Below are positions 42,024 to 44,709 of a stretch of 64,000 nucleotides of DNA, one piece after another. Position 1 is the stretch's first letter. The number at the start of each line of letters is the position of its first letter. The notes under the pieces are model-generated. The model saw only the letters and a program-made list of their open reading frames with translations. It did not search any database and had not been told where the DNA came from. The position numbers were made by a program, and so were the translations under genes. The stretch covers positions 32,001 to 96,000 of the IMG/VR virus record IMGVR_UViG_646311924_000007; one strand, written 5' to 3'. The DNA comes from a virus (Duplodnaviria > Heunggongvirae > Uroviricota > Caudoviricetes).

Positions 42024-42697
42024 TAGCACCCACAATTTATCACCGTATCGACGGTACCAAATACAGGAATGTCTGGGTTGTTGGTGATCTGCATGGTTGC
42101 TACACCAGACTGATGTCCGAACTCCATCGTGTGGATTTTGACCCTGCGCAGGATTTACTGATATCGGTCGGCGACATTATCGATCGCGGCACCGAAAATG
42201 TTAAATGCCTGGAGCTATTGCAGATGCCATGGTTCAGAGCGGTTATGGGCAACCATGAGCGGCTGATGATTGATGCGTTAAGTCCTGATGGCAACGTGAA
42301 TAACTGGCTAATGAATGGCGGTCAATGGTTCTTCATGCTGGACGCTGATCAGGAAATATTAGCCAGGGCGCTGGTGGAGTTGGTAAGACGACTGCCCTAT
42401 ATCATTGAGTTGAACATCGGGCAAGAAACTATCGTTATAGCCCATGCCGACTATCCGGATAATGAATATCAATTCGGTAAGGAGGTGCCGCTTTTCAACG
42501 TTGTCTGGGCGCGCGAGCGTATCAGTGATTCGATGGATGATATTGGTGGCGAAATTTCGGGCGCAGATCGTTTTATCTTTGGTCACACTCCGGTGAAAAG
42601 CCCGAAGACATTCTGGAATCAGCATTATATCGACACTGGTGCCGTATTTTGCGGAAACCTGACATTGATGAAAGTGAAAGGTGATGGTGCAGCATGA
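42005..42697 (+). CDS. ppp: lambda-type Ser/Thr protein phosphatase
   Basis: Metallophosphatase motifs GDLHG, GDIIDRG, GNHE. Confidence 0.8.
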
Positions 42698-42952
42698 AGA
42701 TTGCTTTAGTTCTTCGCTCTGGTGGTGACTATAACGCTTCCGATGTGCAGTGGCTGGTTAATCAACTGCCAAAAGGCTATGAAATTATTTGCCTGACAGA
42801 CCTGAAGCGTTTACATGTACCTGGCGTCAAAGTTGTCCCATTGATCAACCAGTGGCAAAAGTGCCGTGGCTGGTGGGCGAAAATCGAGTTGTTCCGACTG
42901 AACCGCCCCGGAAATCCTGGAGACTAAACTCCCTGAGAAAGAGGTAAACAGG

Positions 42953-43279
42953 ATGACTAAAAATACTCGTTTTTCCCCCGAAGTCCGTCAGCGGGCGATT
43001 CGTATGGTTCTGGAAAGTCAGGATGAATATGACTCACAGTGGGCGGCAATTTGTTCCATTGCCCCAAAGATTGGCTGTACGCCGGAGACTCTGCGTGTCT
43101 GGGTTCGCCAGCATGAGCGGGATACCGGGGGCGGTGATGGTGGGCTCACCAGCGCTGAACGTCAGCGTCTGAAAGAGCTGGAACGTGAAAATCGTGAACT
43201 GCGCCGCAGTAACGATATCCTTCGCCAGGCTTCCGCTTATTTTGCGAAGGCGGAGTTCGACCGCCTCTGGAAAAAATGA
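42953..43279 (+). CDS. IS3-family transposase OrfA
   Basis: 108 aa [19 protein letters not shown]..., HTH and leucine zipper; matches IS629/IS1203 OrfA as recalled. Confidence 0.85.
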
Positions 43280-44166
43280 TGCCACTGCTGGATAAGCTGC
43301 GTGAGCAGTACGGGGTCGGACCGGTATGCAGCGAACTGCATATTGCCCCGTCAACGTATTACCATTGTCAGCAACAGCGACATCATCCGGATAAACGCAG
43401 TGCCCGTGCGCAGCACGACGACTGGCTGAAGAGAGAGATACAGCGCGTATACGATGAAAATCATCAGGTGTACGGTGTGCGTAAAGTCTGGCGTCAGTTG
43501 TTACGGGAAGGAATCAGGGTGGCCAGATGTACAGTGGCACGTCTCATGGCGGTTATGGGACTTGCCGGTGTTCTCCGGGGTAAAAAGGTCCGTACGACCA
43601 TCAGCCGGAAAGCCGTTGCCGCAGGCGACCGCGTAAACCGTCAGTTCGTGGCAGAACGACCTGACCAGCTGTGGGTGGCTGATTTTACTTACGTCAGCAC
43701 ATGGCAGGGCTTCGTCTATGTGGCGTTTATCATTGATGTGTTTGCCGGATACATCGTGGGGTGGCGGGTCTCATCGTCTATGGAAACGACATTCGTGCTG
43801 GATGCGCTGGAGCAGGCGTTGTGGGCCCGTCGTCCGTCTGGCACCATCCATCACAGCGATAAAGGCTCTCAGTATGTGTCACTGGCCTATACGGAGCGAC
43901 TAAAAGAAGCCGGATTACTGGCATCAACAGGGAGTACAGGCGACTCGTATGACAACGCGATGGCTGAGAGCATCAATGGTCTTTACAAAGCGGAGGTAAT
44001 ACACCGTAAGAGCTGGAAAAACCGTGCAGAAGTGGAACTGGCCACACTAACGTGGGTGGACTGGTATAACAATCGACGATTGCTGGGAAGGCTGGGCCAT
44101 ACTCCTCCGGCAGAAGCAGAAAAAGCTTATTATGCTTCCATCGGAAACGATGATCTGGCAGCCTGA
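43276..44166 (+). CDS. IS3-family transposase OrfB (DDE)
   Basis: 296 aa with DDE core; overlaps orfA in -1 frame at GGAAAAAATG. Confidence 0.85.
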
Positions 44167-44709
44167 GTTCACAGATAAAACACTCTCCAGGAAACCCGGG
44201 GCGGTTCAGACCGGATATAACCGATGATCTGTTCTATCTGGATTTGGACACGGTTATTGCCGGTGATATACGCCCAATCCTTGAGAATCCACCAACCTGC
44301 TTCACCATGCTTAGGGATTTTTACCATCCACAATATCGTGGTAGCGGTGCCCTGTGGATACCAAATAGTGTAAAAGCACATATCTGGAGTTCATTCTGGC
44401 AAGATCCGGAAGGTTGGATTGCTCGTTGTGTCACTACTGAGTGCTGGGGTGATCAGGGGTTCTTACGGAAGGTTATGGGCGATGATACACCAGCATTTCA
44501 GGATCTGTATCCAGGATGGTTTGTAAGTTACAAGGCCGATGTTGTGGAACCTGGTTCAAAATATGCGAGCGCGCGTTACTCCAGGGGGAATGGGGCATTA
44601 CCAAAGGACTGCCGAATAATCTTTTTCCACGGCAAACCGCGGCCTCGCGAAGTGTCAGAGGATTGGCTTCCCCTCATTAGCTCGTTTTTTGAGCGAGAAT
44701 CAGAATAAT

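Follow-up and report, generated by a model that had tools for sequence, protein, structure and literature searches.

The window analyzed here, a 64,000-nucleotide stretch of viral DNA, is part of a P1-type phage-plasmid. It carries the C1-repressed operon pmgN-pmgO-pmgP-ppp-pmgQ, the last gene of which, pmgQ, is split by a complete, 1310 bp copy of IS629 (IS1203) on the plus strand at 42899-44208, with a 3-bp direct duplication of the target, GAC, at both flanks (42896-42898 and 44209-44211). The features of the locus are as follows.

40641-40696, plus strand: control region of the operon, made up of the PpmgN promoter and the C1 operator Oppp (positions transferred from the P1 annotation)
40707-40895, plus strand: pmgN (P7 hdmA), a small ORF that runs into the start of pmgO (ORF; P1 and P7 annotation)
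40837-41499, plus strand: pmgO, intact, putative transferase of Maf/MptE-like (DUF115) type carrying VGSGPS (phrog_4603, E 4e-74)
41397-42023, plus strand: pmgP, intact, distant pmgO paralog, likewise carrying VGSGPS (phrog_2111, E 7e-132)
42005-42697, plus strand: ppp, intact, lambda NinI-type Ser/Thr metallophosphatase (Pfam Metallophos, E 5e-15; phrog_246; NCBIfam PRK11439)
42694-42898, plus strand: 5′ fragment of pmgQ, codons 1-68 and the first base of codon 69, with the VLRSGG motif and without the DXD (alignment)
42896-42898, unstranded: left copy of the target-site duplication, GAC (sequence)
42899-44208, plus strand: IS629 (IS1203), with terminal inverted repeats at 42899-42923 and 44184-44208 (100% identity to annotated copies)
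42953-43279, plus strand: IS629 orfA (HTH_Tnp_1)
43276-44166, plus strand: IS629 orfB (HTH_21, rve DDE core, rve_3)
44209-44211, unstranded: right copy of the target-site duplication, GAC (sequence)
44212-44708, plus strand: 3′ fragment of pmgQ, codons 69-233 and the stop, with D79-L-D81, G148-D-Q150 and H208-G-x-P (alignment)
44710-44775, plus strand: PpmgR promoter with C1 operators OpmgRa (44710-44726) and OpmgRb (44759-44775) (transferred from P1)
44790-45008, plus strand: the ORF after PpmgR (phrog_3177; essentiality from PMC9024508)

The IS629 copy and the gene that it interrupts

A first, sequence-only reading of this DNA had described an IS629-like insertion splitting one gene. The element proved to be IS629 itself, identical over its full length (100%) to copies annotated as IS629 or IS1203 in Stx phages, and its repeats, its orfA/orfB layout and its 3-bp duplication are those of the IS629 copies that STEC, E. 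coli O157:H7 included, carry in their Stx prophages and plasmids. The terminal inverted repeats are imperfect (26-nt, 88% complementary, beginning TGAAC), and the window holds four matches to the IS-end pattern, where chance would give 0.00. The product of orfA matches HTH_Tnp_1 (E 2e-12) and that of orfB matches rve (E 9e-28), HTH_21 and rve_3; the two frames overlap at 43276-43279, and in RefSeq, OrfAB of the IS1203-family copies that related plasmids carry is annotated as the product of a programmed frameshift. A second, identical copy of IS629 lies in the same window, inverted relative to the first and with a duplication of its own, GAA/GAA. The presence of two identical copies suggests that IS629 was recently active in the host. 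Inversion between them was ruled out, each copy being flanked by its own matching duplication (GAC/GAC for the copy in pmgQ).

Upon in silico removal of the IS and one GAC, joining 42694-42898 to 44212-44708, the frame was restored as had been predicted, yielding 702 nt with no internal stop and a protein of 233 aa. As it stands in the window, the disrupted ORF from 42694 encodes 77 aa, consisting of 68 native codons and one base followed by nine codons of the IS. The restored gene is identical at 702/702 positions to an intact allele on the E. fergusonii P1-like plasmid NZ_CP057563.1, and shares 98% nucleotide identity and equal length (233 aa) with P1 pmgQ (P7 hdmD). The two halves are thus undecayed and the insertion into codon 69, known here from an assembly, is recent as judged from sequence. 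The codon-69 junction was carried by no other record in any collection searched, and a 43-mer of the left junction had 0 matches in scans of genome_contigs, viral_contigs and metagenome_contigs; two plasmid and three E. coli genome records covering most of the query had the IS at other places, and related plasmids have IS629 at other sites within the same pmgN-pmgQ operon. IS629 also splits phage genes elsewhere, with annotated cases in exo, ant, terL and ssb; what sets the present insertion apart from these known ones is its target, codon 69 of pmgQ in a P1-type phage-plasmid, which was seen only here among the collections searched.

The gene lies in the same surroundings as P1 pmgQ and P7 hdmD, following ppp, the stop of which overlaps the pmgQ start in the same ATGA (42694-42697), and preceding the C1 operators and pmgR, but the gene in the window is interrupted whereas that of P1 and P7 is intact. 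A search for intact alleles, which the earlier reading had proposed, returned contiguous pmgQ genes in 588 plasmid and 19 phage records; the halves are therefore not separate genes. Among P1-like loci, pmgQ was intact in 44 of 46, with a median dN/dS of 0.13. The gene is not needed for plaque formation by P1, where CRISPRi yielded an EOP of 1.4 (PMC10695390); according to the same paper, its deletion was also tolerated in the deletion survey cited there as ref. 73. That survey is PMC9024508, the main text of which does not name pmgQ. The labels "putative morphogenetic function" and "head morphogenesis" given to the P1 and P7 genes appear to be positional, no homology or experiment being given for them in the records, and no functional study of pmgQ, pmgO/pmgP, P1 glycosyltransferases or phage Maf/DUF115 proteins turned up in literature searches.

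Of the proposal that the operon is now inactivated, the part that stood concerns its last gene: pmgQ is knocked out, but the pmgN, pmgO, pmgP and ppp ORFs are intact and of P1 length, and the pmgR promoter is kept. In the P1 annotation, the operon is driven by a C1-controlled sigma-70 promoter with possible read-through from a late promoter. The PpmgN/Oppp region of the window has 4 mismatches to P1 in 221 bases, all of them outside the operator, and since the C1 operator of this promoter has been conserved between P1 and the window, the operon is predicted to be off in lysogens. PpmgR, an independent promoter for pmgR and pmgS, is together with both its C1 operators identical to P1 and P7 at 110 of 111 bases; polarity of the IS on pmgR, which is essential in P1 (PMC9024508), was rejected on account of this intact promoter and its operators. 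We propose that one active-looking IS629 transposed into codon 69 of pmgQ to generate a null allele, leaving behind a 77-aa stub devoid of the DXD and a 3′ fragment that lacks a promoter. The IS leaves the preceding genes of the operon untouched and, as the essential pmgR keeps its own promoter, plaque-forming particles would presumably still be made as far as the pmgQ locus goes.

Fold, family and partners of PmgQ

The protein family had been left unrecognised in the sequence-only reading. This holds for domain models, in that restored PmgQ had 0 matches in Pfam at E<=0.1, including the GT8 model Glyco_transf_8 (PF01501), and 0 matches in NCBIfam; family assignment was therefore made via PHROGs, a profile-versus-PDB search and a fold search. 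It does not hold for the gene, which is P1 pmgQ (P7 hdmD) and encodes a GT8-like protein. Searched against protein and profile databases, as had been advised, the IS-free sequence gave a full-length match to PHROG 1962, "glycosyltransferase" (E 2.5e-127, residues 1-233 against profile positions 1-230 of 230) besides its 98% nucleotide identity to P1 pmgQ, the product of which is named glycosyltransferase in RefSeq.

A profile of the PmgQ family matched GT8 structures (6mw5, 3e-8; 5gvv, 2e-5; glycogenin, 4e-4). The AF2 model, made on an intact protein 97% identical to restored PmgQ (P0001), had a pLDDT of 95.4, and its best-scoring Foldseek matches in the PDB were glycogenin, LgtC, Gat1 and GlyE, all with a probability of 1.0; TMq reached 0.61, with TM values of ~0.5-0.6 at 10-17% identity. 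The 50 PDB matches listed are presumably GT8 enzymes, except for WbbM (6u4b), a bifunctional glycosyltransferase for which the listing gives no family; the search outputs themselves name GT8 only for GlyE, 3tzt and the 5gvv profile match. In an alignment of 71 sequences, D79, L80, D81, D149 and P211 were invariant and H208 nearly so. By profile and predicted fold, PmgQ is GT8-like, with a DLD motif and a C-terminal H-G-x-P, and its family, going by sequence comparison, is a large clade of its own related to GT8, without a Pfam or NCBIfam model, that comprises 1848 clusters at E<=1e-30 and 4267 at E<=1e-10 (50%-identity clusters). The GT-A fold, the DXD motif, a C-terminal motif with a His (HGKPRP in PmgQ, HxxGxxKPW in GT8) and a similar size are common to PmgQ and the CAZy GT8 enzymes (glycogenin, LgtC, the Skp1 alpha-galactosyltransferase Gat1 and GlyE). 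PmgQ differs from them in being only 10-17% identical, at a TM of 0.5-0.6. The unmatched Pfam GT8 model and the only moderate similarity of fold count against a GT8-like identity. Our working picture is that PmgQ would be a ~230-aa cytoplasmic GT-A glycosyltransferase, kin to the retaining GT8 enzymes (glycogenin, LgtC, Skp1 galactosyltransferase), in which the DLD motif is predicted to bind metal and nucleotide sugar and the C-terminal motif would read H-G-x-P-[RK]-P.

The two genes upstream of ppp had been read as GxGPS paralogs, and PmgO and PmgP do both carry VGSGPS and are distant paralogs, the PmgO-family HMM matching PmgP at E 2e-8. PmgO has a weak Pfam match to MptE-like, and the only real fold match of its AF2 model (pLDDT 85.9) is the Maf glycosyltransferase 5mu5 (TMq 0.57); Maf is a protein O-glycosyltransferase. 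PmgQ and PmgO are unrelated in profile-profile comparison, which rules them out as paralogs of each other. The idea that these genes form a functional unit gained support outside P1, a PmgO-like ORF lying adjacent to and upstream of the PmgQ-like ORF in 21 of 36 non-P1 loci and the two being fused in several proteins (L071, at least 7 of 18 long family representatives, and also among the top BFVD matches). This conserved adjacency and the gene fusions in unrelated phages argue that PmgQ works with PmgO/PmgP.

In HK97-type clusters, the pair directly follows the major capsid gene, and in many of these phages ribosomes may enter the PmgO-like part from a small ORF behind the capsid gene by a conserved -1 frameshift (candidate site C CCC N / C CCU UUG); in podovirus-type clusters, the pair has the major head gene on one side and the tail tubular genes on the other. 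The placement of the pair in head/tail gene clusters is conserved across phages of alpha- and gammaproteobacteria, and a SAM methyltransferase is sometimes found beside, or fused to, the PmgO-like and PmgQ-like genes. Other locations include that of the pair in phiNP, between the lysis genes and terS, a typical moron site, and those of solitary PmgQ-like genes between int and the tail-fibre genes of phage Chlobot and between lpdA and acnB in a Pantoea chromosome. A defence-system reading of the operon was dropped, PADLOC having returned 0 matches for PmgQ, PmgO, PmgP and Ppp.

Candidate functions of the PmgO/PmgP/PmgQ module

The explanation that we favor as a whole, with a probability of roughly three in four, is that of a recent IS629 null allele of a GT8-like pmgQ belonging to a PmgO/PmgP/PmgQ module which, most likely, makes a virion glycan. 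PmgQ would act with the Maf-like PmgO and with PmgP, and in the course of lytic growth the module would assemble a short glycan on one of the phage's own virion proteins, probably one of the head; upon loss of PmgQ, this glycan would be truncated or gone and plaque formation unaffected. The co-location of the relatives with structural genes and the methyltransferase beside or fused to them speak for such a role. Taken on its own, glycosylation of a virion protein as the function of the module stands, in our estimate, somewhat below an even chance. The more far-reaching proposal, that PmgO/PmgP and PmgQ constitute a previously unrecognised virion-glycosylation module of Gram-negative phages, that P1 virions are glycosylated and that the present allele is glycan-defective, is put forward tentatively. 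The paper on the P1 virion proteome nowhere mentions glycosylation, and none of the virion proteins of P1, or of any other PmgQ-encoding phage, has been reported to carry a glycan. Also counting against a virion target, the P1 operon sits between tail genes and pmgR, away from the capsid gene, and is driven by its C1-controlled sigma-70 promoter besides the possible late read-through, and some PmgQ-like genes are solitary, at the usual positions of lysogenic-conversion genes.

It is conceivable, albeit unlikely, that PmgQ and PmgO/PmgP instead modify the host envelope, adding sugars to the LPS core, the receptor of P1, so as to mask receptors or exclude superinfecting phage, in which case the IS insertion would abolish receptor masking on infected or lysed cells. 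LgtC, an LPS/LOS glycosyltransferase, is among the best GT8-type fold matches of PmgQ (TMq 0.61), PmgP is faintly and non-significantly similar to the Kdo transferase WaaZ (E 0.11), and the solitary genes at a classic lysogenic-conversion position (Chlobot) or in a host chromosome (Pantoea), as well as the phiNP pair at its moron site, would fit such a role. The C1 operator on the P1 operon, however, predicts silence in lysogens, neither a GtrA/GtrB-type flippase nor another membrane partner was seen beside it, and a lysogenic-conversion position, as defined by int/att, is absent in both the window and P1 and is found only for solitary homologs such as that of Chlobot. The paired form, moreover, is kept in head/tail clusters across alpha- and gammaproteobacterial phages; as LPS cores are expected to differ among the hosts of these phages, a phage-encoded acceptor is favored.

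Addition of sugars to phage DNA or another nucleic acid, as an anti-restriction measure, is a known activity of phages in the case of DNA, and methyltransferases adjoin the gene in some loci, but we consider it very improbable here. The genes are located in structural rather than replication modules, and the enzymes listed as nearest in structure, namely glycogenin, the Skp1 galactosyltransferase, GlyE and LgtC, have proteins or glycans as their substrates, not DNA. P1 DNA is not known to be glycosylated. When P1 genes of unknown function were deleted, antirestriction activity did not change for the group as a whole (PMC9024508). Finally, that the assembly collapsed repeats and misplaced a copy of IS629, with pmgQ uninterrupted in reality, might be suspected from the multicopy nature of the element, its second identical copy in the window and a junction common to no other record searched, but deserves hardly any credence given that both junctions are precise, that the element is complete with a perfect 3-bp duplication, which misassembly would not create, and that the second copy is flanked by a different duplication, GAA.

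In itself, the pmgQ allele is an ordinary IS629 knockout of a dispensable P1-type gene; it carries little weight and is useful mainly as a strain marker. The finding nonetheless points to an operon of P1 that has had no known function ever since annotation of the genome and provides a testable hypothesis for it, that of a Maf-like and GT8-like module acting on virion proteins; the sugar-transferase module of which PmgQ is a part is widespread in phages, unstudied and usually found beside capsid genes. Should it glycosylate virion proteins, the known range of this modification, most examples of which have so far come from mycobacteriophages, would widen to include coliphage P1 and many other phages, with relevance to the immune recognition of therapeutic phages.

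In mycobacteriophages (Che8 and the Corndog-type cluster O), phage-encoded glycosyltransferases are reported to decorate capsid and tail-tube proteins, and an O-methyltransferase gene is sometimes present beside the glycosyltransferases of these cassettes (Freeman et al. 2023, as cited in PMC11600133 and PMC11256854). PmgQ-family genes of proteobacterial phages resemble these cassettes in the company of genes that they keep. The Maf-like partner suggests that the sugar chemistry of the module would be different from that of the mycobacteriophage cassettes.

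Structure of the IS629 insertion and identity of the split gene

The reading frame that starts at 42694 is interrupted by a complete insertion sequence, the parts of which are as follows:

42899-44208: complete IS629 (1310 bp)
42896-42898 and 44209-44211: direct GAC repeat flanking IS629
42953-43279: IS629 orfA (HTH_Tnp_1 match)
43276-44166: IS629 orfB (HTH_21/rve/rve_3 match)

Copies annotated as IS629 in Stx-converting phages matched the element at 100% identity along its entire length; RefSeq names the same element IS1203 on many plasmids. Its termini are imperfect inverted repeats of 26 nt (88% complementary), and four ends with the IS-end pattern were found in the window versus 0.00 expected. 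The interrupted frame consists of 68 native codons plus one base followed by nine IS codons, yielding a 77-aa product. Joining of 42694-42898 to 44212-44708 restored a 702-nt frame encoding 233 aa, the sole stop of which is terminal, such that the sequence-only reading of an IS-disrupted frame, reconstituting a ~233-aa protein upon removal of the element and one GAC duplicate, was upheld in every detail. In line with the proposed coupling to ppp, a Ser/Thr metallophosphatase gene, the ppp stop overlaps the downstream start in ATGA, and both upstream proteins described as sharing GxGPS carry a VGSGPS motif.

Database searches with the reconstructed sequence identified the gene as pmgQ (hdmD in P7). 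The restored sequence was identical (702/702) to an intact gene on the E. fergusonii plasmid NZ_CP057563.1, was matched over at least 80% of its length by 588 plasmid records, and corresponded to a contiguous gene, 97-99% identical, in 19 phage records including P1 and P7; the two halves are thus not separate genes elsewhere. The neighbourhood is that of P1, and the window is therefore a P1-type phage-plasmid:

minus strand: gp7, gp25, gp26
then plus strand: pmgL, pmgM, pmgN, pmgO, pmgP, ppp, pmgQ, pmgR, pmgS, pap

The earlier statement that the protein family is not recognised held for Pfam and NCBIfam, in which no model was found for the restored protein, but not for PHROG 1962 (glycosyltransferase), which matched it end to end (E 2.5e-127), nor for RefSeq, where P1 pmgQ is named "glycosyltransferase".

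The window harbors another copy of the element in inverted orientation:

61871-63180, minus strand: second IS629, 1310/1310 identical to the first
61868-61870 and 63181-63183: its GAA duplication

This copy splits an anti-repressor gene (Ant, phrog_63, E 3e-83; ATG at 61864) after codon 2-3. The two copies bracket 17.7 kb and, since each retains a matching duplication, no inversion has occurred between them.

Effect of the insertion and natural variation of pmgQ

Because both gene halves are identical to the intact allele, the target duplication is perfect and the two IS629 copies do not differ, the insertion is recent. Searches of PLSDB, complete E. coli genomes, GTDB representatives, IMG/VR and JGI metagenomes gave no match to the exact IS629/pmgQ junction. 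Among related P1-like plasmids (coordinates are those of each locus), IS629 separates pmgN from pmgO in pUTAK-13-1 (L005, 3055-4268) and abuts a shortened 133-aa phosphatase ORF in pF1200-2 (L004, 2555-4833), where the annotation divides the pmgQ region into two short ORFs; pmgQ carries an internal stop in pF1053-2 (L006, 6156-6857) and is frameshifted in L055 (7001-7698). Of 677 matching PLSDB records, 89 lacked an alignment that spanned 80% or more of pmgQ. The gene was intact in 44/46 P1-like loci with a median pairwise dN/dS of 0.13 (32 distinct alleles), and is therefore under selection in nature.

The suggestion that the operon is now inactivated needs correcting, as the IS is located in its last gene alone. 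pmgN, pmgO, pmgP and ppp are equal in length to their P1 counterparts, and the upstream PpmgN/Oppp region shows four differences from P1 over 221 positions, all outside the operator. The intergenic region 3′ of pmgQ, home to PpmgR and two C1 operators, has a single difference from P1 and P7 over 111 positions. A polar effect on pmgR, a gene essential for head completion in P1 (PMC9024508), is thus not expected, since pmgR retains its own promoter. CRISPRi knockdown of pmgQ yielded an efficiency of plating of 1.4 (PMC10695390), and a table in the same paper also lists the gene as non-essential from a deletion survey; pmgQ is dispensable in the laboratory. The insertion is real but ordinary: a known and very active IS has newly turned a known, non-essential P1 gene into a null allele. 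Of more interest than the insertion are the PmgO/PmgQ module, which is uncharacterised, and a putative conserved frameshift of its relatives.

The PmgO/PmgQ module

In an alignment of 71 PmgQ homologs, V6, G10, W60, K63, D79-L80-D81, D149 and P211 were invariant, and a VLRSGG start, G148-D-Q150 and H208-G209 almost so. Among PDB entries, the profile of this alignment matched GT8 structures alone, namely Skp1 alpha-galactosyltransferase 6mw5 (3e-8), GlyE 5gvv (2e-5) and glycogenin (4e-4). The AlphaFold model of P0001, an intact protein 97% identical to PmgQ, was of high confidence, having a pLDDT of 95.4 and a pTM of 0.91. Its 50 listed Foldseek PDB matches were all glycosyltransferases (TMq 0.45-0.61), namely Gat1, GlyE, glycogenin, LgtC, XXYLT1 and 3tzt, which we take to be GT8 enzymes, and WbbM, to which no family is assigned. 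The best BFVD matches were uncultured-phage proteins named "Glycosyl transferase family 8" (TM 0.77) or long "MptE-like" proteins. We conclude from profile and model that PmgQ is a predicted GT-A, GT8-like glycosyltransferase and, because the Pfam GT8 model does not match, only a possible formal member of GT8. Its family is a large one: a profile search of 1.84 billion representatives placed 1848 clusters in it at E<=1e-30, a number that rose to 4267 with the cut-off at E<=1e-10.

PmgO is distantly paralogous to PmgP, and both have weak Pfam MptE-like/DUF115 matches. The single real structural match of the PmgO model (pLDDT 85.9) was the Maf glycosyltransferase 5mu5 (TMq 0.57, probability 1.0), the remainder being generic Rossmann folds (TM ~0.3). 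RefSeq calls pmgO on related plasmids (L003, 806-1306; L005, 4410-4910) as a 166-aa "hypothetical protein" starting downstream of VGSGPS. This start is probably mis-set, because the 220-aa P1-style ORF of the window (40837-41499) includes the motif and aligns with homologs.

The view of the operon as a functional unit is supported, at least for PmgO and PmgQ, which are co-located in unrelated loci and fused in some proteins. A PmgO-family ORF lies upstream of a PmgQ-like ORF on the same strand in 21 of 36 non-P1 loci (34 from IMG/VR plus the distant Onishia and Martelella prophages, where the PmgO-like gene adjoins, or is one gene upstream of, its partner). One fusion protein is encoded in locus L071 (6989-8254), and the best 140 representatives of the family include 18 long proteins, at least 7 of which are PmgQ-PmgO fusions; other long members carry fused SAM-methyltransferase or sialyltransferase-like segments, and some single proteins contain tandem PmgQ-like domains. 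The top BFVD matches include 441-700-aa phage proteins of the fused kind. Representatives listed as multi-domain (any of these architectures) are:

P0173, P0186, P0188, P0205, P0249, P0256, P0286; P0258, P0172, P0288, P0295

HK97-type loci start with terminase, portal, ClpP protease and major capsid genes, continue with (small ORF), PmgO-like, PmgQ-like and, in some cases, Methyltransf_24, and lead on to head-tail connectors; in at least 13 loci the capsid gene is immediately upstream of the module. Podovirus-type loci read major head protein, small ORF, unknown ORF, methyltransferase, PmgQ-like, tail tubular A, tail tubular B; phiNP, a lambdoid phage, has the pair between Rz and terS.

The start of the PmgO-like frame was checked in 11 non-P1 loci:

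L009, 7243-7700
L010, 6590-7200
L058, 6241-6700
L059, 3455-3900
L060, L064, L072, L075, L081, L083, L085

In all 11, this frame has no ATG, GTG or TTG between the last upstream stop and GxGPS, and is the -1 frame of a 75-95-aa ORF (PHROG 2616/7993, function-unknown families) starting directly after the capsid gene. At a distance of 8-12 codons ahead of GxGPS, the small-ORF frame of every locus reads "C CCC N", "C CCT TTG/A" or "C CCC CCG", and in L059 and L060 a -1-frame stop lies directly 5′ of that proline codon. Judged from sequence, this is a candidate for a conserved, programmed -1 frameshift, by which the PmgO-like transferase would be made as a fusion with the small protein. P1 pmgO, in contrast, starts at an ATG of its own and lacks this arrangement.

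A possible virion glycan

We tentatively infer, with a probability of about 0.4, that one of the structural proteins of the phage would receive a short glycan from PmgO/PmgP and PmgQ in the course of lytic growth, in which case the sugar that depends on PmgQ would be missing with the IS629 allele. Several of the closest relatives of known structure have protein substrates: Maf modifies flagellin, glycogenin modifies itself, and Gat1 and GlyE extend glycans linked to proteins.

Modification of LPS core or another envelope glycan, the main rival, is unlikely: it draws on the fold similarity of PmgQ to LgtC and on solitary PmgQ-like genes at lysogenic-conversion positions or in a chromosome, but the C1 operator of the P1 promoter counts against it, as does the fact that the two genes stay paired within the structural modules of phages whose hosts are expected to differ in LPS. 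The solitary genes, with no PmgO-like partner, lie between integrase and tail-fibre genes in the temperate coliphage Chlobot (L093, 5001-5720) and between lpdA and acnB on the Pantoea floridensis chromosome (L007/L008, 8001-8633); they suggest that non-virion roles also occur in the family. Two further alternatives, glycosylation of DNA and an assembly artefact, carry little weight.

A glycan on the virion would have a parallel in mycobacteriophages, described in PMC11600133 and PMC11256854, citing Freeman et al. 2023, as glycosylating capsid and tail-tube proteins with glycosyltransferases and an O-methyltransferase.
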